Under the pieces are notes generated by a model. It had not been told where the DNA came from and did no database searches. It worked only from the letters and a program-made list of their open reading frames with translations. The translations under genes were made by a program, and so were the position numbers. This document shows, piece after piece, positions 29,393-57,016 of a DNA stretch of 64,000 nucleotides (within the stretch, counting starts at the first letter, position 1; every line of letters starts with the position of its first letter). Location: the NCBI RefSeq assembly GCF_988242995.1, contig NZ_OZ547043.1. The stretch is one strand, 5' to 3'.

Positions 29393-29460
29393 GCCCACCT
29401 GTACGTGCCAACTTCCAGTGCTAATGGTATAGTTTGAGATTAACGGGGGCCGTAAAATTG

Positions 29461-29510
29461 CCCGTTGTAGGCCGGATAAGGCGTTCACGCCGCATCCGGC
29501 AAAAATTTGA
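29461..29510. repeat. REP element
   Basis: cccgttgtaggccggataaggcgttcacgccgcatccggc, a canonical enterobacterial REP palindrome. Confidence 0.55.
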
Positions 29511-42248: not shown

Positions 42249-43481
42249 TCACTGCTCCTCCACTAGCTCGGCTGCCTGATGCTGGCGCACGCGATTGAGC
42301 AATCCCGCCAGGGTGAAAACGACGATAACGCCCGCCACAACGGCTAACAGATGAAACGGCAAGCGACCGCCGTTAAACCATAGCCAGCGGCCGATTTCGA
42401 CCGAGACCGACATCACCATCAGGATCACCATATTTAGCGATGCGGAGACGGTCCCTTTCGGTAACTTATTGGAAAACAGCGTAAAGCGGAATAAGGTCGG
42501 GAAAATCAAACCAATCCCGAAAGCATACAGACTGGTGCCCAGCACCGACCACAGCCAGACGTGCGGCGACAGCAGATTGCCGACAATCAACAGCGAGAGG
42601 CCGACCAGTTGAATGGGTACGGCACGCCAGATAAACCGCGGTTCGGTCGGATCTTTAACAAAACGCGCCACGATGGCATTCGCAACAATCACCGCGCCGA
42701 ACACCGGAACCTGTGTCCAGGCGAACTGCGAAGTTGTTAAGCTGCCTGCATCGATAAGGATCACCGGCGAGACAGCCACCCAGCTCATCATCGGGATATA
42801 GCTTAAAGAGATGGTTGCTGCGCCAAAGAGGAACAGCCGATTGCAAAAGACATTACGAAAATCGCGCAAGACGCTTTTGGCGCTAAACGGAACCGCGCCG
42901 CGCTTCACCGTCTCTGGCATCGCCAACAGTAAGCCAACAAATGAGATAAAACCCATAACCGCAATGATGGCAAAAAGGACTTTCCAGTGCATAAAGTGCA
43001 TCAGAGCTGCGCCGGAAAGCGGGCCGATAATCGGCGCAATCAGTACGATGGAGGTGATAATCGCCATCAACTTGATCCCTTTTGTCTGTCCGAACGCCTC
43101 CTGCACCGTGACATAACCAACGGTGGCAATAAAACAGATACTGGTGCCCTGAATTGCACGCGCGATAAGAAACTGTGTCATAGACGTTGTGAACATTGTC
43201 GCGGCGCAGGCAAGGGTAAAAATTAGCGCCCCGGTAATCAGCACCGGCCTGCGGCCAATTCTGTCGGAAAGCGGCCCCAGCAGCCACTGTAACGCCATAC
43301 CGCCAGCAAGATAGAGACTGACGGCAGCAGGGGCCAGACTGACATCGGCATTAAAATCACGTACCACATTAATGATCCCAGGCTGGATCAGATCCGTCGA
43401 CAGATACGCAGCAAAGTCATACAAAATCAACGCCATCGGGAAAAACAGCGTGGCGGCATGGCGGGTAAAAAAACGTGGCAT
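42249..43481 (-). CDS. mdtM: MFS multidrug efflux transporter
   Basis: Start at [14 protein letters not shown] (ATG 43479-43481) for 410 aa; 12-TM MFS. Confidence 0.9.
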
Positions 43482-43959
43482 AACAAACAACTCCTTGTCC
43501 GGAGAACCCCAACGGGGAAAACGAAATTCAATACCGTCGGTAATGACGAAAGGCAGGTGAGAAGGGCAACGAGACTGCAAATGTACTGAATTTCATGTAA
43601 TCAACCACACTGCCTGTGAACACACAGACAGAGAAATACTTTCTGACTTAGGGTCAGAATGTATAACGATTACAAATAGTCATCAGCACATTACACCTCT
43701 TGAATTGATGGGTTGCATAGAAAATATACACCTTAAGTGTAATTAAAATTTGCGGTTAATCAAAAGAGCGCGGTGGAAAGGGGAATATCTGCCGGGTACA
43801 GGACATGTAAAACGCGAGCTTGTTTCCGGAAAAATGTATCGTTTGCAGAAGAATAAAAATAGCCTGGAAAGCGCCTCGGGGAATGGGAAATTGCCGGGTG
43901 AGAATGGTTTTGTTAGTCGCTAAAGTCAGGCCATCTTTTTCAACAGGTGATGGATCGCC

Positions 43960-44874
43960 ATGACAAACTTCACGACCAGCACGCCGCATGATGCATTATT
44001 TAAAACCTTTCTCACGCACCCTGACACTGCGCGGGATTTTATGGAGATTCACTTACCTAAAGATTTACGTGAACTGTGCGATCTCGATAGCTTAAAACTG
44101 GAATCCGCCAGCTTTGTCGATGAAAAATTGCGGGCGCTACACTCCGATATTTTATGGTCGGTAAAGACCCGCGAAGGCGATGGCTATATCTATGTGGTGA
44201 TTGAACATCAGAGCCGCGAGGACATTCATATGGCCTTTCGCCTGATGCGCTATTCCATGGCGGTGATGCAGCGCCATATAGAGCATGATAAACGCCAGCC
44301 GCTACCGTTGGTCATCCCGATGCTATTTTATCACGGTAGCCGTAGTCCTTACCCCTGGTCCCTGTGCTGGCTGGACGAATTTGCCGACCCGACTACCGCA
44401 CGGAAGCTTTATAACGCCGCGTTCCCGCTGGTGGATGTTACTGTCGTGCCAGACGACGAGATTGTGCAGCATCGCAGAGTCGCCCTGTTGGAGTTGATCC
44501 AAAAGCATATTCGCCAGCGCGATCTGATGGGGCTTATCGATCAACTGGTAGTATTACTGGTTACAGAGTGTGCTAATGACAGCCAGATAACTGCGCTGTT
44601 AAATTACATTTTACTGACTGGCGATGAAGCGCGTTTTAATGAGTTTATCAGTGAACTTACCCGTCGAATGCCACAACACAGGGAGCGAATAATGACGATT
44701 GCAGAGCGAATTCATAATGATGGATATATAAAAGGGGAGCAGCGCATTCTTCGATTGTTGTTGCAGAATGGGGCGGATCCTGAATGGATACAAAAGATTA
44801 CCGGACTTTCGGCAGAGCAAATGCAGGCATTAAGGCAGCCCTTGCCTGAGCGCTATTCATGGCTCAAGAGCTAA
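43960..44874 (+). CDS. rpnD: Rpn-family (YhgA-like, PD-(D/E)xK) recombination-promoting nuclease, intact
   Basis: 304-aa ORF with D...E-x-Q nuclease core (DILWSV...YVVIEHQS). Confidence 0.7.
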
Positions 44875-45117
44875 TCAGAGACGGATGACAAACGCAAAGC
44901 AGCCTGATGCGCTATGCTTATCAGGTCTACATAACCCATTAAATATATTGAACTTTAAAGATTTTTGTAGACCTGGTCAGGCGTTCACATGGCATCCGGC
45001 ATGAACAAAGCGTACTTTGCTTAATTCAGGCTGGAACGTGGCGATGACCCAGCAAAGATAAAACGAGTCACAGGTTATGCATGAGAGGAAATCAGGCGCT
45101 TCGCCGCTATTTCGAAT

Positions 45118-46530
45118 TTATTCCATTGCCCGATACACGGCCTCGCCAATTTGCTTCAGTGCTTCGCGATAGGTTTCGCTGAGCGGCAAAGCGCAGTTGA
45201 TGCGCAGACAATTACGGTATTTGCCGGAAGCTGAGAAAATCGAGCCTGCCGCCACCTGGATTTTCATGCGGCACAGCTGCCGCGCGACGCAGACCATATC
45301 GACCTGTTCAGGCAATTCTATCCACAGTAAAAATCCGCCTTTCGGGCGCGTAATACAGATTTCGCAGGGAAAATATTCCCGTATCCAGCAGGTATAAAGC
45401 GCCAAATTGCGCTGATAGATCTGCCGCATCCGCCGGATATGGCGATGATAGTGACCTTCCAGCACAAACGTTGCCGCCGCCATTTGCGTGGACGGCACAT
45501 TAAAGCTGCTGATGGCGTATTTCATATGCATCAGTTTATCGTGATAACGCCCCGGTGCGACCCAACCCACGCGCAGGCCTGGTGCAATACTTTTACTGAA
45601 CGAGCTGCACAACAGCACTCGCCCGTCGATATCCCAGGAATGAATGGTCCGCGGGCGCGGATACTCCGTCGCCAGTTCGCCATAGACATCATCTTCAAAA
45701 ATCACAATATCATGACGCTGAGCGAGAGAGAGAACGGCCCGTTTGCGCGCGTCCGGCATAATAAATCCCAGCGGATTATTACAGTTTGGCACCAGAATGA
45801 TGCCTTTAATCGGCCACTGTTCCAGCGCCAGTTCCAGCGCTTCAACGCTGATGCCAGTTTCTGGATCGGTTGGGATTTCAATCACTTTCACGCCCATGCC
45901 GCGCAGCATCTGCATCGAACCGTAATAACAGGGGGATTCGACCGCGACAATATCGCCCGGTTTACACACTGCCATTAACGCCAGCGACATCGAGTTATGG
46001 CAGCCGCTGGTGATGATGATGTCATCGGCGGTGACCACCGAGCCGCTGTCGAGCATCAGGCGGGCAATCTGCTCTCGCAATACTCGCTGACCGGCTAACA
46101 AGTCATAACCGAGAACGGTTTGCAGATTATGCTGCACCACCCGGCTTAGCTCCCGCCAAAGCGGTTTCAGGCTGGGCGCTTCGACATCCGGTGTGCTTTT
46201 GCTTAACGGAACAATGGAACTGTCGCTATGCGCCTCCAGCATATCCAGCACCTGATCCCACTGGGTAATTTCCACCGGGCGCTGCACCGGACGCGTCATC
46301 GGCGGTACTGGCGGCTGGGCTTTACGTTGTGCGACAAAATAACCCGAACGCGGCTGCGGAGTGATGAGCTTCATCGTCTCCAGCGTCTGATACGCCTGCT
46401 GCACGGTGCTGATACTGACGCCGTGCTCCTGACTTAAGCTGCGCACCGACGGCAATTTCTCCCCGTGACGATACAGCCCTTGCTCAATCCGCTCGGCAAG
46501 CAGAGTTGCCAGATGTTGATAACGCGTCAT
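45118..46530 (-). CDS. yjiR: MocR-family regulator (GntR HTH fused to PLP-aminotransferase domain)
   Basis: 470-aa ORF with N-terminal HTH and aminotransferase-like remainder. Confidence 0.85.
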   Translation of the reverse strand: MTRYQHLATLLAERIEQGLYRHGEKLPSVRSLSQEHGVSISTVQQAYQTLETMKLITPQPRSGYFVAQRKAQPPVPPMTRPVQRPVEITQWDQVLDMLEAHSDSSIVPLSKSTPDVEAPSLKPLWRELSRVVQHNLQTVLGYDLLAGQRVLREQIARLMLDSGSVVTADDIIITSGCHNSMSLALMAVCKPGDIVAVESPCYYGSMQMLRGMGVKVIEIPTDPETGISVEALELALEQWPIKGIILVPNCNNPLGFIMPDARKRAVLSLAQRHDIVIFEDDVYGELATEYPRPRTIHSWDIDGRVLLCSSFSKSIAPGLRVGWVAPGRYHDKLMHMKYAISSFNVPSTQMAAATFVLEGHYHRHIRRMRQIYQRNLALYTCWIREYFPCEICITRPKGGFLLWIELPEQVDMVCVARQLCRMKIQVAAGSIFSASGKYRNCLRINCALPLSETYREALKQIGEAVYRAME

Positions 46531-47320: not shown

Positions 47321-50300
47321 ATGTTGTGGGGTTTTGTTTTTGTATCTTTTATCTCTAAGGAGCTTGCTTTGGGTCAATCAGAATACATTTCATGGGTAAA
47401 ATGTACTTCCTGGCTAAGTAACTTTGTGAATCTTAGAGGGTTGAGACAACCGGATGGACGTCCTCTTTATGAATATCATGCAACCAATGCTGAATATAAC
47501 CAATTAACGCAGCTACTCTGTGCTGTTGGTCAATCACAATCTAATATATGTAATAGAGACTTTGCTGCCTGTTTTGTTCTTTTTTGCTCTGAGTGGTACC
47601 GCAGGGATTATGAACGGCAATGCGGATGGACGTGGGACCCTATATATAAAAAAATAGGGATTTCATTCACCGCCACAGAGCTTGGTACTATCGTACCGAA
47701 AGGGATGGAAGATTACTGGCTGCGCCCAATTCGATTTTATGAATCTGAACGACGTAATTTTCTCGGAACATTATTCAGTGAAGGTGGTTTACCTTTCCGG
47801 CTACTCAAAGAATCAGACAGTCGCTTTCTGGCTGTTTTCTCCAGGATCCTTGGACAATATGAGCAAGCAAAGCAGTCAGGTTTTTCTGCCCTTTCGCTGG
47901 CAAGAGCTGTCATAGAAAAATCAGCGCTGCCAACTGTTTTTAGCGAAGATACCTCTGTAGAACTTATCAGTCATATGGCTGATAACCTCAATTCCTTAGT
48001 ACTTACTCACAACCTAACAAATCACAAAGAACCAGTACAACAGCTTGATAAGGTTCACCCTACCTGGCGAAGCGAGTTTCCAATACCGTTAGATGATGAA
48101 ACAGGAACGCATTTTTTGAATGGACTGCTATGCGCAGCCTCTGTAGAGGCTAAGCCTCGACTACAAAAAAATAAGAGTACGCGTTGCCAATTCTATTGGT
48201 CAGAAAAGCATCCAGATGAGCTTAGGGTGATAGTATCTCTTCCTGACGAAGTTTCCTTTCCTGTAACTAGCGAGCCGTCAACTACGCGCTTTGAACTTGC
48301 CATTTATGAAGATGGTGAGGAAGTCTCTGGCCTTGGGCCAGCCTATGCTTCCCTGGAAAACAGACAGGCAACAGTTCGATTACGTAAAAGCGAAGTGAGA
48401 TTTGTCAGGCAAAATCCATCTGCAGGTTTGTCGTTAGTGGCTCGTGCTGGAGGGATGATTGTTGGGAGCATTAAACTTGATGACAGTGAAATTGCCATTG
48501 GTGAGGTGCCGTTAACCTTCATCGTTGATGCAGATCAATGGCTGTTACAGGGACAGGCCTCCTGCAGTGTGCGAAGCAGCGATGTTCTGATTGTGCTCCC
48601 TCGGGACAATAGCACTGTTGCTGGTTTTGATGGCCAATCGAGTGCAGTAAACGTATTAGGACTTAAAGCGCTACCTGTTAAGGGATGTCAGGACGTTACA
48701 GTTACAGCAAATGAAACTTATCGGATTCGCACCGGAAGAGAACAAATCAGCATCGGAAGGTTTGCTCTAAATGGAAAGCGTGCAAGCTGGGTTTGTCATC
48801 CAGATGAGACATTTATTGGTGTACCAAAAGTCATTTCTACACTACCAGATATTCAAAGCATTGATGTAACGCGTTACCTGAGCGGAATTTCAATTGAGCA
48901 ATGTCATATACAAGAGATGCTAGGGGCTCAATATCTTTCTATCCGTAATAGTAATAATGAAACGCTCTTGCGTCGCAAAATCGGTATCTTGCCTGCTGAT
49001 TTCAGTATTGAGATAAAAGGTGGAATGCACGCAAATGAAGGCACTATCGTAATCACCACACAGCATCCTTGTGTAGCAACACTTAAAGATAAAACATTGG
49101 AGGCTACACGTAAGCGTACTGAGGGGCGAACAGAGATACAACTCAAAGCGGAAGGGGTACCTCCGGCATTTATTACATTACAAGTTCTGCCTAATTTGGC
49201 GGCTGATACCATCGACATTGAGTTACCTTTCCCAGCTAAAGGCTGCCTTGCTCTTGATGTAAACGGACGTCCTCTGGATAAAAACATTACGCTGCATGAT
49301 CTGCTGGGTTCCAGAGCATTCCTGTTCTCCAGAAATGGTGAGCCGACAAAATATACATTGCAGTTGCATTTGCGCTCCATTAGTGGATTACAGGCATGGC
49401 ACGAATGGAGTTATACGGCATTGAGCGAGCGTCCTGTTGAATTGAATCTCTATAGTCTACGTGAACACATTGAAAATCTGATTTCACTTGAGGCAGGTAT
49501 TGATCAGGTTGTTGAGATGCGTATTACGGGGGCGGGTGTGGTCATGGCCTGGCAAATTCGTCGCTATAAATACAGCCTGCGCTATGATTATGAAAAAGAA
49601 CTATTACTCAGCCAGTCAGTGAACCATCGTGCTGGACAGATTCCTTCCCCCGTTATCATGCTGTTAAGTGAACCCGAGAGGAAATCCATTCCCTTAGCAT
49701 CAAGAATGAGCGAGGGAGTGCCTGTCGGTGAATATGAGTTGAGCTCAATCGTTAACAAAAACGGACCATGGTTGGTTGTTCCTAAACCGGGTGAAGAGAT
49801 GGCTTTTCGCCCCTGCTTCATTCGTGGCGAATCTTCGTTACCGGTAGAAGAAAGCAACATCCGCTCATTGCAGAAAGCGACCCAGCTTTTTAATCCACAG
49901 GCAGAAGTTAATACCATCACACGGGTTCTCGGACAGATGGCTAACGATCCTGCCCATTCCGGCTGGCAATTTATGCGTAGCCTGTACGATCAATTTGGTT
50001 ATTTACCGCTGGCAACCTTTGAAGTATGGCGTGCACTAGTGCAGCATCCGCAGGCATTGGCGATGTCGCTCTTCAAATTCGAAATGTCAGCAGAGTATCT
50101 GAGTCGTATTGAGAATGAGTTCCCTATTTTATGGGAGTTTTTCCCCATCTTTGAGATCAAAGCTGCATCTGAGCGTTTCAAATTGTTCCTGAGCCAAAAA
50201 GGTGCACCGGAGGAAACCCAGAAATTACTGGTTACCAATATGTTTCAACGGCTGGGGCTCGTGTTCCCGACATATGCCGATGAAATTGAGAAATGGTTAA

Positions 50301-50659
50301 GTAATGGATATCTCCCCCCGTCTATTCCTGAATCTTGTGTCCACGGGTGGTATCAGGAGCTCTTACGTGAGCACAGTGAAGCTCGCTGGCCTGAATACGG
50401 CTGCAAGCGTCTGTATAAATGGATGATGTCACAAAAAAATCCAGTGATTGGTATTAATCCTGACGCAAATCACCGCTATTCCGTGGCCTGGTTACCCGTC
50501 TTCGCCGCAGCGGTGGCAAGCGGAAATGCTTCTTTTGAATCTGTATTTGACCGTAAACCCGGTGCCGTATTTTTCCTGAGGCAAGTCAGGGATTTCGATT
50601 CCCGCTGGTTTAAGGCCATCTTCCAGTTCAGCCTGTTGCGTTATGTTGCTAAAAAATAA
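47321..50659 (+). CDS. large protein (1112 aa) of unknown function, first gene of candidate defence operon
   Basis: Uninterrupted 3.3-kb ORF. No nucleotide-binding or nuclease motif recognised by eye. An in-frame TTG at 47369 preceded by AAGGAG may be the true start. Stop lies 12 nt before the helicase gene. Confidence 0.8.
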   Translation: MLWGFVFVSFISKELALGQSEYISWVKCTSWLSNFVNLRGLRQPDGRPLYEYHATNAEYNQLTQLLCAVGQSQSNICNRDFAACFVLFCSEWYRRDYERQCGWTWDPIYKKIGISFTATELGTIVPKGMEDYWLRPIRFYESERRNFLGTLFSEGGLPFRLLKESDSRFLAVFSRILGQYEQAKQSGFSALSLARAVIEKSALPTVFSEDTSVELISHMADNLNSLVLTHNLTNHKEPVQQLDKVHPTWRSEFPIPLDDETGTHFLNGLLCAASVEAKPRLQKNKSTRCQFYWSEKHPDELRVIVSLPDEVSFPVTSEPSTTRFELAIYEDGEEVSGLGPAYASLENRQATVRLRKSEVRFVRQNPSAGLSLVARAGGMIVGSIKLDDSEIAIGEVPLTFIVDADQWLLQGQASCSVRSSDVLIVLPRDNSTVAGFDGQSSAVNVLGLKALPVKGCQDVTVTANETYRIRTGREQISIGRFALNGKRASWVCHPDETFIGVPKVISTLPDIQSIDVTRYLSGISIEQCHIQEMLGAQYLSIRNSNNETLLRRKIGILPADFSIEIKGGMHANEGTIVITTQHPCVATLKDKTLEATRKRTEGRTEIQLKAEGVPPAFITLQVLPNLAADTIDIELPFPAKGCLALDVNGRPLDKNITLHDLLGSRAFLFSRNGEPTKYTLQLHLRSISGLQAWHEWSYTALSERPVELNLYSLREHIENLISLEAGIDQVVEMRITGAGVVMAWQIRRYKYSLRYDYEKELLLSQSVNHRAGQIPSPVIMLLSEPERKSIPLASRMSEGVPVGEYELSSIVNKNGPWLVVPKPGEEMAFRPCFIRGESSLPVEESNIRSLQKATQLFNPQAEVNTITRVLGQMANDPAHSGWQFMRSLYDQFGYLPLATFEVWRALVQHPQALAMSLFKFEMSAEYLSRIENEFPILWEFFPIFEIKAASERFKLFLSQKGAPEETQKLLVTNMFQRLGLVFPTYADEIEKWLSNGYLPPSIPESCVHGWYQELLREHSEARWPEYGCKRLYKWMMSQKNPVIGINPDANHRYSVAWLPVFAAAVASGNASFESVFDRKPGAVFFLRQVRDFDSRWFKAIFQFSLLRYVAKK

Positions 50660-50671
50660 AAAGGAATAAGG

Positions 50672-53600
50672 ATGACTACACGCTATTTTTCGTCACTTAT
50701 TGAACAATCGTTGTCTCGTTCAACTGAAGCAACGCTCAGTATCATGGGCGTTACAAACCCGCAGTTGCGTGAACATCTCGCGCAGCAAATGGGGGCTGAT
50801 TGTGGGAAACCGGGCTCATTCCTTGCTTCTCCGGTATTCCAGCAAATGTTTGGCTGGAAGGAGTCAAACCACACGATGCGCAGTCTGACGGAAGGCAACG
50901 CATTGTTGAGCAAAGCAGTGGTTGATTCACTGGATGATCAGAGTAATGGCCGGTACCGATTTGGTGCTGACTGGAAGCCTTTTACACACCAGTTAGCCAG
51001 TTGGAAAGCTTTGCTGGAAAAGAAACATTCAGTGGTGGTAACCAGTGGTACGGGTTCAGGTAAAACGGAATGTTTTATGGTACCGGTGCTGGAAGATCTT
51101 TACCGGGAACTGCATGAAAATGGCAACAATCCGTTGGTCGGTGTCCGAGCCCTTTTTCTCTATCCATTGAACGCCTTGATTAATTCACAGCGCGAGCGTC
51201 TGGATGCCTGGACGCGTGGTTTTGGTACTGGGATCCGCTACTGCTTGTATAACGGAAATACAGAAGAGCTCCACGCAAAAATGAAAACAGTGCAGGATAA
51301 TAGACCAAATGAAGTCTTATCCCGTGAAAAGATGCGTCTGGAGCCAGCCCCGATTCTGGTGACCAACGGCACGATGCTGGAATATATGATGGTTCGCCAG
51401 GTCGACGCCCCGATTATCCAGCAATCCAAAGCACAAAAATCACTACGCTGGATTGTACTGGATGAAGCGCATACCTATGTCGGGTCGCAGGCCGCTGAAC
51501 TGGCACTCCAGCTGCGTCGTGTGATGACAGCGTTTGGCGTGACGCCAGATGATGTGCGCTTTGTAGCGACCTCTGCGACCATTGCCTGCAGCGACGCCGA
51601 AAAGCAGCTGAAAAAATTTCTCTCTGAATTATCCGGTATCCCGCAGGAGCGCATCGATGTTCTGGACGGAAGTCGGGTGATTCCTGAACTGGAACCATCC
51701 AAAAACGTTTCTGTTCCGTTAGACGAAATAGAGCAAATACCTGATCTGGATCTAAAAGATAAAAATGATAATAAAATTAAAGGGATAAGCCCTGAGCGCT
51801 TTTATGCGCTTACGCACTCCCCCGAAGCGCGTTACATACGTGAAATGTTGGTTAGCCAACCCAATCCAATGAAACTGGATGAGATGACGCAGCGGTTAAA
51901 TGCGCTGACAAAACAGCATTACAGCCAGCAGGAAGTACTGCGTTGGATCGATGTCTGTTCAGGGACTCAACCTAATGCAAAGGATCCCGCATTTCTTAAA
52001 GTCAGGGCGCATATCTTCCAGCGTAATACCCAAGGAATATGGGCTTGTGTTGATAAAGATTGCAGATTAAAGCACGGTACACCGCTCGAAAAAGGCTGGC
52101 CCTTTGGCTATGTGTATGTGAACCAGCGACAAAATTGTGACTGTGGAAGCCCTGTATACGAAGTTGCATTCTGTAATGATTGTAATGAGCCTCATCTTCT
52201 GGCGCAGGACAAAAAGGGCAAACTTGTCCAATGGGAAAATAAAGGTGGCGATGAGTTCTCCTTGCAGGATGAAGTACCTGTTGAACATGACACTACAGAG
52301 GAAAAAGTCGAAAAAGAGAACGGTTTCCTGCCTCCGTTGATTATTGCCGCAGGAGAGACCAGCGAGACAGGCTATACCCTACAACGCCTCGACCACCAGA
52401 CGCGCCGTATTGGCGTTATTAACAATGACAGCATTCCGCTGATTATTAATGATGTTGAACAGGTTTGTAGCGCCAGTGGCTGTGGCTACAGAGGCATGAG
52501 TGGGAAACAGCCCTTCCGGCGTGCACTATTAGGTGGGCCATTTTACGTTACTAATATCGTGCCCACCGTTCTTGAGTATTGTCAGGACTTTACCAGTGAT
52601 GAAGGCAAAGAGGGCGTCGGACCAGATTCGTTGCCAGGGCGAGGACGTCGACTCATTACCTTTACGGACAGTCGACAAGGTACAGCTCGAATGGCGGTGC
52701 GTATGCAGCAAGAAGCAGAACGCAGTCTCTTACGCGGAAGCGTAGTCGAAATTCTGAGCTGGCATCAACGGACGCAAACGTCCACGGCGCCGAATGCCAA
52801 TGCCGATCTGGAAAAATTAGCGGCCAGGGCAAAGCAAGCCCGTGAGCAGGCAGAAGAATATCGAAGCTGGGGAATGCCAGACCAGGCGAAATTGTCACAA
52901 GCACAGGCTGAACAGCTTGAACAGGCTTATCAGGCTGCAACCGGTGGAAAAGCAGCAACTACCCTGGTATCCCGCACCTGGACAGAAATGGTTAACGAGC
53001 TTAAAGATAAAGCCGATATCCGTGGCCCGGTACTGAAATATAACCACTATTTGCAGCCTGAAGTGTTTAATAAAAACGGCGGGCCACTAAAGCTTTCGGA
53101 AATGTTGTTGTTCCGGGAATTCATGCGTCGCCCTAAACGGACTAACAGCCTGGAAACACAGGGGCTGGTTCAGGTTGGTTACCAGGGGCTGGAGAAAATA
53201 CATAAGAGCCCCTTGCACTGGCAGGAAAAAGGATTAACGCTGGATGACTGGCGCGATTTTCTCAAGGTTACGTTGGATCTTTATGTTCGCGAAAGCAACT
53301 TCACACAGCTGGATGATGAGCTGAAAAACTGGATTGGTAGCCGTTTTTCATCAAAATTCGTCCGTAACCCGGAATCAAAAGATCCTGAAGATAATCAGAA
53401 CAGACGCTGGCCTCAAATTCGTAATGGCAACGTATCCCATCGTTTAGCGAAGTTACTGATGCTGGGGGCTGGATTCAAAACCGTCAATACGGCGACTATT
53501 GATATTATCAATACATGGCTGAAAGAAGCATGGGCCCAACTTACCGGACCACTTGCAGTACTGAAACCCGATGGCAACCGTTTTTATTTACCGAAAGAGC

Positions 53601-56600
53601 ATATGACTTTTTCTTTAATCACGGATGCCTGGATTTGCCCGGTAACCAATAAAATCCTGGATACGGCTTTTAAAGGCTTAACCCCTTATCTGCCCACCCA
53701 TATTTCGTTCGAGCATCTTACCCAGGCGCAATATGACACTTTTGTCGCGCAGAAAGTCACCATGCCGGAAATCTGGAAGCTGGATCGTTCACAGGAAGAC
53801 TACGCAGAGGGTCTGGCAAAAGCACGAGACTGGGTCAACAATGATCCGCTGATCGCACAATTGCGGTCGGAAAACGTCTGGACAGACATCAACGATCGTG
53901 TAGTGGAAGGCGGTTTCTACTATCGCACTGCCGAGCACTCTGCCCAGCAGTCGTCAGAACGCCTGCAAAGCTATGAAAAGATGTTCAAGAACGGGCAACT
54001 AAATGTTCTCAACTGTTCCACCACCATGGAAATGGGGGTTGATATTGGGGGCATTACTGCGGTGGTAATGAACAACGTTCCGCCACATCCGGCCAACTAT
54101 TTACAGCGCGCCGGGCGAGCCGGGCGTAGTAAAGAATCACGCGCGATCTCTTATACCCTATGCAAAGGTAACCCACACGACCAGCAGGTTTTTGCCAACC
54201 CACTCTGGCCATTTGAAACCATGATCCCGGCACCCATGGTCGCGATGAACTCCGCCCGACTGGTGCAACGTCACGTCAATGCATTATTACTGTCTGACTT
54301 TTTATGTAACGTTATTGGCGAAACCGATAAAGAGAAAACCAGCCTCGATAGCCTCTGGTTTTTCGGTGAAGATGACGGGCAGTCAAAATGCGAACGCTTT
54401 AAAGTCTGGCTGGAACGCCCGGTTCTTGATATCGACATGGCGCTGGAACGGCTGGTGAAAGGTACGGCGTTGCATGGCGCAAGAGCCGAACATCTGCGGG
54501 ATAAAACAATCAATGCGATCACCTTCCTGCAACAGCGGTGGCTCTCCGTTTATCGCGATCTCGTGACCCAGGAGCGTGAGTCGCAGCCGCAAACGCCTTA
54601 TCGTAAGCGCATAGAGCTGGAGAAGAAACGGCACTGTGGCGAGTATCTGCTGCGCGATCTGGCTGCCAGAACCTTCCTGCCGGGATACGGTTTCCCGACA
54701 GATGTAGTGACGTTTGATAACTTCACGATGGAAGATTATATCCGCGAAAAATCGCAGAAAAGTCGTGATAAAAAGGACCGTGAAGATAACGTCTCCCGTT
54801 ATAAAGGATTACCTTCCCGTAACCTCGGTGTTGCCATTCGTGAATATGCACCGGGAGCAGAGATCATTCTTGATGGTCGTGTCTTCCGCTCTGCCGGTGT
54901 CTCACTGCACTGGCACAACATTAATGCTGATACCAATGAAGCCCAGCGTCTGGATTGCGCCTGGCGCTGTCACAAATGCGGGACCATTGGCTATGAAGAG
55001 GGGATGAGCAGTTCCGGGATGCTCTTTTGCTCCAACAGCGCCTGCGGCGAAAAAATAACCATGGATAATCGCCGTCAGGTGTTGCAGCCTGCCGGGTTTG
55101 TCACCGATGCACACGCTCCGGTAACGAACAATATTGAAACCATGAAATTCGTCCCGGTTGTCCCCGCGTGGGTCTTTGTTAAAGCAGAGCCTGTACCGTT
55201 GCCTAACCCGCTAATGGGTTATATGGCTTCTGGGGCTGATGGGCATGTTTTCCAGCAAAGTTTGGGGGAAGGTGGACACGGTTATGCATTGTGTCTGAGC
55301 TGTGGCCGTGCGGAGTCGATGCTGAATGAAAATGATGCACCGAAAAGTATGGAAGCTCACTATCCACCGCGTCCGGGTAAAGCGGACCGCGACAGCCAGA
55401 ATCATCGTCTGATTTGCCCCGGTTCGACGGCACTCATGAAGAACGTCACCCTGGGCGCACTGGCGCGCACCGATGTCTTTGAAATGGTTCTGCGCAAACC
55501 GCAAAACGGCGAGTATCTGCCAGATAACACAGAAGAGGGGCGGATTGTCGCTATGACTCTGGCGGTTGCTCTGCGTCAGGCGCTGGCAGGCGTTCTGGGT
55601 ATCTCCGCCGCAGAACTCGGCTATTCTGTACGTCCGGTCAGACTGGAGGATGGGCAATCGGTATTAGCCGTTCAGCTTTATGATGTGATCAGCGGTGGTG
55701 CTGGTTTTGCCTCCAGCGCACCGGTACATATTGAAGCTATATTGCAGGGAATGGTGAAACAGTTAGGCTGCCGCCATTGTGATACTGCATGCAGTGAATG
55801 TCTGCTTGATTCCCAGACTCGCCACGATCACGATTTGCTGGATCGCAAAGTGGCGCTGGCTTGGCTTGGCGATGACTTCACGTATTACATCGGTTTACCG
55901 GATGAAGAGACATTCTCGCTGCCGGATGCCCGCTACTGCCCTGGCGCTATTGGCGATACGATTCGCCGGGCGATTAACGAAGGCGCTGAAAAGCTCACCC
56001 TGTGGATGACTGGCGCGCCCAATGAGTGGGATTTATACGGCCGTCAGTTCCGCGCGGCTATTCAGAGCTATCGGCTAAAAGACAACGTCGAGGTCGATCT
56101 TGTTATTCCTGCGGGAGTGGATGACCCAGACCTGTTGCATGAACTATCGCAATTTACTGCGCTGGGTGTGCGGTTGTGCCATGTTGAGCAGGAGCTGCAA
56201 TTACCGATTGTTGCCCAGGTCACCTTTGCCGATCGCGTGATGACGCTGGCCTCTCGCAGTCAGCAGGCAACGATTCCGGGGCCGGAGTGGCACCTGAATG
56301 ACGAACTGGTGGTGCGTAGTCTCGGTTATCAAACGGTAGAACTGAACGAGTTTATTCTGCCCGCTAAAGCCGCCAACGCTGTCGAGCGGGTCAAAGACAT
56401 TCAGATCCACAAACAGTTGAATGGACCACTTTCGCAGTTTGGGCAACGCTTCTGGGACGTGCTGTTTAACGACCATGAAGAAGCGCAGTCACTGATGAAA
56501 AACACGCGAATTACCGGCGTTCACTATACCGATCGCTATCTGCAAAACCCGGTTGCGCTGGCGTTGTTGGGATCAATTCTGAAACCGCTAAAAACAAAGC

Positions 56601-57016
56601 TGACCGATGGCGCTGAAGTGGCGCTGGATACGCTGTTTAAAGATAAAGATCGCCCCGGTAACCGGCCTTTCCATGACTGGATGAGCATAGCGGATTTTCA
56701 GGATTTCGCTGATCAGTGGTTTGCTGCTGCGCTGGGCAGGCCGATAGAACTGACGGTGTTCGATTCGCCGCGCGATATCCCTCACCATCGTAAACTGACG
56801 GTGACTTTTGAGGATGGTCAGGTATTGAAGATCCGCTTCGATCAGGGGATGGGCTACTGGCGCATCAACTTTGCATCGCAATGGCATTACTTTGATTTCC
56901 GCGATGACGTTTCTTTCCAGTTAGTCAAAATGGCTCAGGCCTGCAAGGAAGGGAATGTGGCCAACAGCGAAGAGAGCTGGGCAACGGATGTGCTGGTGGA
57001 GGTGATCGCCTCCTGA
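50672..57016 (+). CDS. giant SF2 (DEAH-type) helicase, 2114 aa, with Cys-rich zinc-ribbon clusters (DUF1998/MrfA-like); DruE-like candidate
   Basis: Walker [11 protein letters not shown] (51041-51070); DEAH box VLDEAH (51455-51472); FVATSAT; motif [10 protein letters not shown] (54104-54127); Cys clusters at 52046-52183, 54956-55045, 55292-55303 and 55769-55801; AAGGA RBS before the ATG. Confidence 0.85.

Follow-up and report, generated by a model that had tools for sequence, protein, structure and literature searches.

The rpnD locus and its surroundings

Within the 64,000-nucleotide stretch of contig NZ_OZ547043.1 (assembly GCF_988242995.1) that we analyzed, hereafter the window, positions 43960–44874 (+) hold an ATG-started open reading frame of 304 codons followed by TAA, as found both in the ORF list and in the sequence, which encodes an intact protein of 304 aa and 35.6 kDa that we refer to as RpnD-L. 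This protein matched the Pfam family PF04754 (Transposase_31/YhgA-like) over aa 8–210 (E 4.5e-87, 291.3 bits against a cut-off of 21) and the NCBIfam Rpn subfamily TIGR01784 (160.6 bits, cut-off 52.1), while its score with the RpnA equivalog model (392.6 bits) fell under the cut-off of 583, as expected because rpnD is a paralogue of rpnA. The gene is flanked by mdtM (42249–43481, −) and yjiR (45118–46530, −), and the order mdtM, rpnD, yjiR is common to the window and to K-12 MG1655, where rpnD (b4584, synonyms yjiP and yjiQ) carries a pseudogene annotation. The first-pass annotation of this DNA had described a single 304-aa ORF at the K-12 rpnD position, and both parts of that description held: the coordinates and length were as claimed, with the Pfam and NCBIfam matches supporting a real gene, and the flanking mdtM and yjiR genes are those of MG1655. 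The ORF at 43960–44874 is an intact orthologue of E. coli rpnD, as Pfam and the MG1655 alignment both indicate. A putative Shine-Dalgarno-like AGGTGA (43945–43950, +) was read from the sequence 9 nt 5′ of the rpnD-L ATG, and a consensus scan of the region found no upstream rpnD promoter above chance. The 478-bp divergent intergenic region between mdtM and rpnD also retains ytiE (43654–43689, −; b4823 in MG1655), a small ORF of 11 codons with a GTG start that reads VLMTICNRYTF.

Alignment of the window with MG1655 across 1 kb around rpnD revealed only two differing sites at this shared mdtM-yjiR locus. Position 44269 is C in the window and T in K-12, such that codon 104 (44269–44271, +) is CAG (Gln) in the window and reads TAG when the K-12 allele is translated. 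It is because of this TAG that K-12 carries the split yjiP and yjiQ named in the first-pass annotation, and K-12 does not share the intact ORF; with CAG in its place, RpnD-L can be made from the window allele. K-12 rpnD further differs in having two TGAGCG units, and its products are 306 and 62 aa where those of the window are 304 and 60 aa. VR50 and CFS3313 are among the wild strains annotated with a 306-aa protein (WP_000181202.1) that is the K-12 product with Gln in place of the codon-104 stop, and a 61-mer carrying CAG was found exactly in 258 complete genomes, the one-mismatch matches listed being K-12 laboratory strains. Amber-suppressor laboratory strains (supE44/glnV44) put Gln at TAG, and strains of this kind would make some full-length RpnD that is exactly wild-type. 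A complete YjiP in most E. coli, with the stop in K-12 only, was reported by Kingston 2015 (PMC4498929), so that intact rpnD as the normal state of the species, with K-12 as the exception, is already known.

Downstream, between the convergent rpnD and yjiR, lie two repetitive extragenic palindromes that form a BIME-like pair, the REP-like palindromes mentioned in the first-pass annotation having been confirmed by a consensus match and an inverted degenerate copy. REP1 (44902–44931, +) is canonical, aligns to the canonical REP at 29460–29503 and carries a match to the REP-consensus pattern, of which the 64-kb window has only two where 0 are expected by chance; REP2 (44965–45001, −) is inverted and degenerate, being identical to a canonical REP at 30 of 37 positions (inverted repeat I1). 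As RNA, the pair folds at −41 kcal/mol (z = −3.76). The IHF site WATCAANNNNTTR, allowing up to one mismatch, was not found in the linker between REP1 and REP2, and we do not call the pair a RIP-type BIME. Pairs of REPs are a common intergenic element of E. coli and, from what is generally known of REPs, this one most likely serves as a 3′-end stabiliser or terminator for both genes.

Two further features of this stretch were observed. In the A/T-rich REP linker is a sub-threshold Rfam match to the sRNA family ES036 (CssrF) at 44923–44965 (−; 30.3 bits against a gathering threshold of 37.6, E 0.0016). The 14-nt sequence GCCTGATGCGCTAT occurs identically at 44240–44253, within codons 94–98 of the conserved FRLMRY motif, and at 44902–44915 in the left half of REP1; the copies are 662 nt apart, and an exact 14-mer repeat within 1.6 kb is unlikely to arise by chance.

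From 47321 on, the window enters the Immigration Control Region, with type III Druantia, McrBC, SymE, HsdSMR (type I R-M) and Mrr. The Druantia genes DruH (47321–50659, +; 1112 aa, PADLOC 1830 bits) and DruE (50672–57016, +; 2114 aa, 2692 bits) together form a full-length, intact type III system. The first-pass annotation had placed the gene near a variable defence island, and its position at the edge, beside Druantia III, McrBC, SymE, type I R-M and Mrr, agrees with this; as a sign that rpnD itself has a defence role, the company of Druantia III, McrBC, Hsd and Mrr is circumstantial. In MG1655, yjiT is much shorter than its counterpart in the window and yjiV is a pseudogene, and K-12 is therefore degraded at this Druantia neighbour too.

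The nuclease core and the internal RpnD-S frame

The Transposase_31/YhgA-like domain of RpnD-L (aa 8–210, 43981–44589, +), as delimited by Pfam and evaluated by alignments and dN/dS, has a predicted PD-(D/E)xK-type nuclease core. In a six-sequence alignment of the window protein, K-12 RpnA, RpnB, RpnC and RpnE, and the 306-aa allele, the residues D11, D63, E82, Q84, R94 and D165 (PDDEI motif) were invariant and had the same numbering as in RpnA, and they were kept in 66 to 75 of 75 homologues in an alignment reaching down to about 30% identity. Mutating these same six residues altered the activity of RpnA (Kingston 2017, PMC5350276). With D63, E82 and Q84 present, as well as D11, R94 and D165, the catalytic D/E/Q residues of the core named in the first-pass annotation are thus unsubstituted. 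Biochemically, the Mg-dependent, Ca-stimulated non-specific DNA endonuclease activity has been shown for RpnA only (PMC5350276). Among eleven intact rpnD alleles, dN/dS was 0.07 for codons 1–210, 0.49 for the linker and 0.32 after M245, with values of 0.34–0.86 when the window allele was compared with the others in the region after M245. The nuclease core is hence under strong purifying selection and the C-terminal part evolves several times faster, and a dN/dS of 0.07 among intact alleles shows long-term selection for the protein.

That faster-evolving part coincides with a second, in-frame ORF, rpnD-S (44692–44874, +; M245–S304), which would yield a predicted antitoxin of 60 aa and 7.0 kDa (62 aa in K-12). 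A Shine-Dalgarno sequence, AGGGAG, lies at 44680–44685 (+), 6 nt 5′ of the internal ATG at 44692, and (A/G)GGAG stands exactly 6 nt before the internal ATG in all five K-12 rpn genes; M245 itself did not vary among the paralogues, and 66 of 75 homologues have it too. The same geometry applied to RpnA predicts an RpnA-S (M244, 49 aa) that equals the published one. A promoter-like site with an extended −10 (44576–44605, +; ATGACA, 18-nt spacer, TG-n-TAAATT), in a stretch where window and K-12 do not differ, came out of the consensus scan as a candidate for the rpnD-S transcript, and as a candidate only, since the scan of the region gave 3 sites where 2.5 were expected, which is not above chance.

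Structural comparisons place a compact domain in this frame. The AlphaFold model (mean pLDDT 90) has an alpha/beta core followed by helices at 238–269, 274–281 and 285–291, with confidence falling after about residue 292, and residues 245–292 align to residues 1–48 of the RpnA-S crystal chain 7TH0 (E 0.016), a weak match for a domain that is short and variable. The precomputed Pfam annotation likewise holds a weak hit to PF27070 (HTH_Rpn_C).

Published work bears directly on whether the internal frame is used. Ribo-RET peaks were reported at the internal start of each of the five rpn genes of K-12, rpnD included, and Zhong 2023 (PMC10400941) detected SPA-tagged small proteins for all five, found internal transcription starts for all K-12 rpn genes and showed that the internal site and M244 drive RpnA-S synthesis. 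Because the window equals K-12 in the stretch around the internal start, the K-12 Ribo-RET and SPA data transfer directly to it. On the gene-within-gene view, which went unmentioned in the first-pass annotation, the gene would encode both RpnD-L and RpnD-S.

For the family, the same study described RpnS as the variable C-terminal domain, for whose synthesis an internal transcript and an in-frame start within the gene are used; by binding RpnL, RpnS prevents toxicity, SOS induction and DNA cleavage. Blocking of RpnL by RpnS was seen for A, B, C and P2, the only pairs examined, four-residue repeats in the first RpnS helix differ between strains and set the specificity of pairing, and the plasmid-borne RpnP2 defends against T-even phages (Zhong 2023, PMC10400941). 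As to rpnD itself, the repaired K-12 allele, yjiPc, was synthesised and overexpressed by Kingston 2015 (PMC4498929), the result being cell death and a roughly 5-fold rise in RecA-independent recombination. The overexpression experiment that the first-pass annotation had proposed for rpnD has in this way already been published, on the repaired allele (Kingston 2015, 2017). Toxicity, SOS induction and recombination from repaired K-12 RpnD, as well as the K-12 small protein, are thus shown by others on near-identical sequence.

Together, these lines lead us to propose a mechanism in which RpnD-L (304 aa) would act through its N-terminal PD-(D/E)xK-type core as a metal-dependent DNA endonuclease that is toxic when active, its C-terminus forming a predicted three-helix oligomerisation domain. 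A shorter transcript, with translation starting at M245, would give RpnD-S, the same C-terminal domain alone, which would bind RpnD-L via the common domain and keep it inactive. Disturbance of the complex, as by phage infection or alkaline pH, would let the nuclease cut DNA with little sequence specificity, and this cutting by released RpnD-L may limit the spread of the phage; SOS induction and cell death on overexpression would follow from the same activity, with increased RecA-independent recombination as a side effect. We consider it probable that this explanation holds as a whole, namely that rpnD is a gene-within-gene nuclease toxin-antitoxin with an anti-phage role. Within it, neutralisation of RpnD-L by RpnD-S and defence of the pair against phage are what we infer from RpnA, RpnB, RpnC and RpnP2.

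Two relatives frame this proposal. RpnA (YhgA) is a paralogue that is 59% identical to the window RpnD and has the same catalytic numbering, its internal Met being M244 rather than M245 with the same spacing to the ribosome-binding site, and its C-terminal domain being alignable to 7TH0; RpnD differs in an extra tail of 12–14 residues beyond the end of RpnA. RpnP2, from a plasmid of ECOR13, belongs to the same family and has the same gene-within-gene organisation according to Zhong 2023 (PMC10400941), a likeness we draw by description. Phage defence has been shown within the family for RpnP2 only, and a similar role for the chromosomal RpnD is suggested by analogy; RpnD had no match in PADLOC 2.0.

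Natural variation of rpnD among E. coli

Besides codon 104, the window allele is set apart by its tail, where a single TGAGCG unit (44847–44852, +; Glu297-Arg298) aligns to two tandem units (ERER) in K-12 and in the common wild allele, so that the protein reads PLPERY in the window and PLPERERY in K-12. The single-unit form was found in none of the 823 complete genomes that matched a 66-nt junction probe, and the 304-aa variant is absent from 5,426 complete genomes and present in public draft assemblies: the exact protein occurs on 39 draft contigs (75 indexed blocks), always in the context of mdtM, rpnD, yjiR, yjiS and yjiT. An assembly artefact or an edit as the source of the 6-bp deletion was ruled out by the occurrence of the exact protein in independent public assemblies in the same context. 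Over the 25 kb from 32000 to 56999 the window is identical to wild strains such as CFS3313 and ETEC4091 but for a length difference of 6 bases, which is the missing TGAGCG unit. The 304-aa form is a rare natural allele. Since the two-unit K-12-type tail can be aligned with the majority tail PLPESKRDPWIEY (PLPE-SK-RDPWIEY) at every position, the length of 306 aa is ancestral and that of 304 aa a derived slippage deletion.

The Glu-Arg deletion falls in the flexible RpnD-specific tail, past the end of the other paralogues and in a low-confidence part of the model. Because the same DNA encodes toxin and antitoxin, both carry the loss and the pair stays matched. The deletion is most likely neutral. 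We regard it as quite improbable that the loss may alter the grip of RpnD-S on RpnD-L or block cross-neutralisation by the antitoxins of other alleles, and so act as a second switch, of specificity or of length, next to the known four-residue repeats.

Larger differences in length arise elsewhere in the C-terminal part. The rpnD classes of 306, 310, 314, 318 and 322 aa are set apart by the number of four-residue units that follow G255, variation in a four-residue repeat after M245 thus explaining the series, and the window allele, of the K-12 lineage, is the zero-repeat form. This variation agrees with the description of hypervariable four-residue repeats that start 8–20 residues after the internal Met and vary among strains (Zhong 2023, PMC10400941). 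The majority alleles (314 and 318 aa; WP_000181113.1, WP_000181180.1) share the locus and the nuclease core with the window allele (dN about 0.01) and possess two to three four-residue repeats (such as EKGK/EEGE) after M245 and the tail SKRDPWIEY, whereas the window allele has no repeats and ends RYSWLKS.

The gene was found in 4,242 of 5,426 complete E. coli genomes, with a median of one place per genome. Among 16 genomes picked at regular intervals along the similarity ranking, rpnD was intact in 12 and broken in 4, each time by a different lesion. The first is the K-12 amber at codon 104. The second is an IS1A inserted at about codon 255–258, inside the RpnS region, in APEC E12049 (locus L004, 2266–3040). 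In E. coli strain 112 (L012, 1089–1138; about 44689–44713 of the window) a 25-nt tandem duplication lies at the internal start, and in E. coli AHB3 (L015, about 752–757; about 44356–44358 of the window) a 1-nt deletion of G at codon 133 (W133) breaks the nuclease core and keeps the RpnS frame, an exact 65-mer with this deletion being present in 62 of 5,426 complete genomes.

Further details of these alleles were recorded. The IS1A insertion at codon 255–258 is also found in MSB1_9I and NZ_LR778151.1, and all three alleles are otherwise K-12-like. The strain 112 duplication consists of ATAATGACGATTGCAGAGCGAATTC twice and originated between a natural pair of ATAATGA direct repeats. It puts the long protein out of frame beyond residue 254 and supplies an intact RpnS with an additional in-frame ATG, one that is now far from the ribosome-binding site, which reads AGAGAG in that allele. 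A probe across this duplication matched genomes with and without it at at least 99%, and its count was discarded.

The idea that inactivated alleles preferentially preserve the RpnS frame was rejected as unsupported: retention is clear for two of the four lesions only (the K-12 amber and the AHB3 deletion), while in the other two the IS1 sits inside RpnS and the 25-nt duplication separates the start from its ribosome-binding site. With about 80% of rpnD lying upstream of M245, lesions that spare the RpnS frame are what chance would give.

Other variants were rarer or larger in scale. In ABWA45 (L010), an IS1 remnant and a brnT/brnA toxin-antitoxin pair have taken the place of the whole rpnD-to-mrr segment between mdtM and yjiA, with the left break near window position 43752; the swapped part of the island thus includes rpnD in some lineages. 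Two proteins from public metagenome or draft data (P0016 and P0053) have in-frame deletions within window residues 72–88 that remove the catalytic E82-H-Q84 strand, the missing segment being IEHQSRED or a 15-residue stretch, and two more (P0038 and P0024) have in-frame duplications of 7–8 residues. These rare indel variants each form their own cluster of one to three members at 90% identity, and could be toxin-inactivating mutations or assembly errors.

The rpnD gene has also diverged more among E. coli than its surroundings, being only 90–95% identical in 3,390 of 4,242 genomes where the 25-kb region around it is 95–99% identical in 4,325 of 5,401 matching records; dS in the rpnD core is 0.15. 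This higher divergence suggests old allele classes or exchange at the border of the island.

Alternative readings and significance

One alternative is that RpnD serves physiologically to promote gene exchange, as a nuclease that starts the RecA-independent replacement of chromosomal segments and notably the swapping of the adjacent Immigration Control Region, and is no toxin-antitoxin defence module. The first-pass annotation had noted that an Rpn protein can promote RecA-independent recombination, which is correct insofar as the repaired K-12 allele gave the 5-fold rise on overexpression (PMC4498929, PMC5350276), and the reading draws further on the place of rpnD at the proximal border of a variable island and on the replacement of the whole rpnD-to-mrr segment in ABWA45. 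The description as a recombination-promoting nuclease dates from 2017 and is based on overexpression, the gene-within-gene toxin-antitoxin and anti-phage view being the current one. The effect needs overexpression: the basal recombination frequency was the same after rpnA-D had been deleted, and toxicity and recombination did not go hand in hand (Kingston 2017, PMC5350276); the overexpression constructs, moreover, unknowingly co-expressed RpnS (Zhong 2023, PMC10400941). It is the toxin-antitoxin model, and not gene exchange, that accounts for the internal antitoxin and for the hypervariability of the C-terminal domain, and we consider gene exchange unlikely as the role of RpnD.

A further alternative is that the gene, though intact as an ORF, is functionally silent and drifting to loss as in K-12, its intactness in this strain then being of no consequence. 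Independent lesions in 4 of the 16 sampled genomes and the lack of an upstream promoter above chance would fit such decay, as would the failure to detect full-length RpnA and RpnD in K-12 laboratory growth (PMC10400941), where the absence of RpnD is expected from the amber codon. Set against this are a dN/dS of 0.07 across the nuclease core, the retention of all tested catalytic residues and the intact gene in 12 of 16 sampled genomes, leaving silence very improbable.

Lastly, the database labels "putative transposase" and "ISNCY family transposase" suggest that rpnD could belong to a small mobile element as its transposase, and the Pfam name Transposase_31, an NCBIfam ISNCY score of 386.9 bits and the absence of the gene from some genomes speak for this. 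The reading is effectively refuted: that score, to the equivalog NF007418, does not reach the cut-off of 583, the rpnD ORF is bracketed neither by terminal inverted repeats nor by flanking direct repeats, the gene is present as one copy per genome and always between mdtM and yjiR, and rpn genes are described as having no inverted repeats, target-site duplications or defined ends (Zhong 2023, PMC10400941).

The gene-within-gene nuclease toxin-antitoxin thus remains the reading we prefer for rpnD. Its intact state, the recombination and the gene-within-gene facts were published in 2015, 2017 and 2023, and only the rare two-residue length variant is new here. For annotation, 43960–44874 should be recorded as intact rpnD, encoding RpnD-L and RpnD-S, and not as a putative transposase, and K-12 should be seen as an atypical strain at this locus. 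Surveys of defence and toxin-antitoxin systems in wild E. coli should include rpnD, a module that is likely active next to the Immigration Control Region, and the natural pair of 304-aa and 306-aa alleles offers a ready minimal test of the effect of the RpnD tail on toxin-antitoxin pairing.
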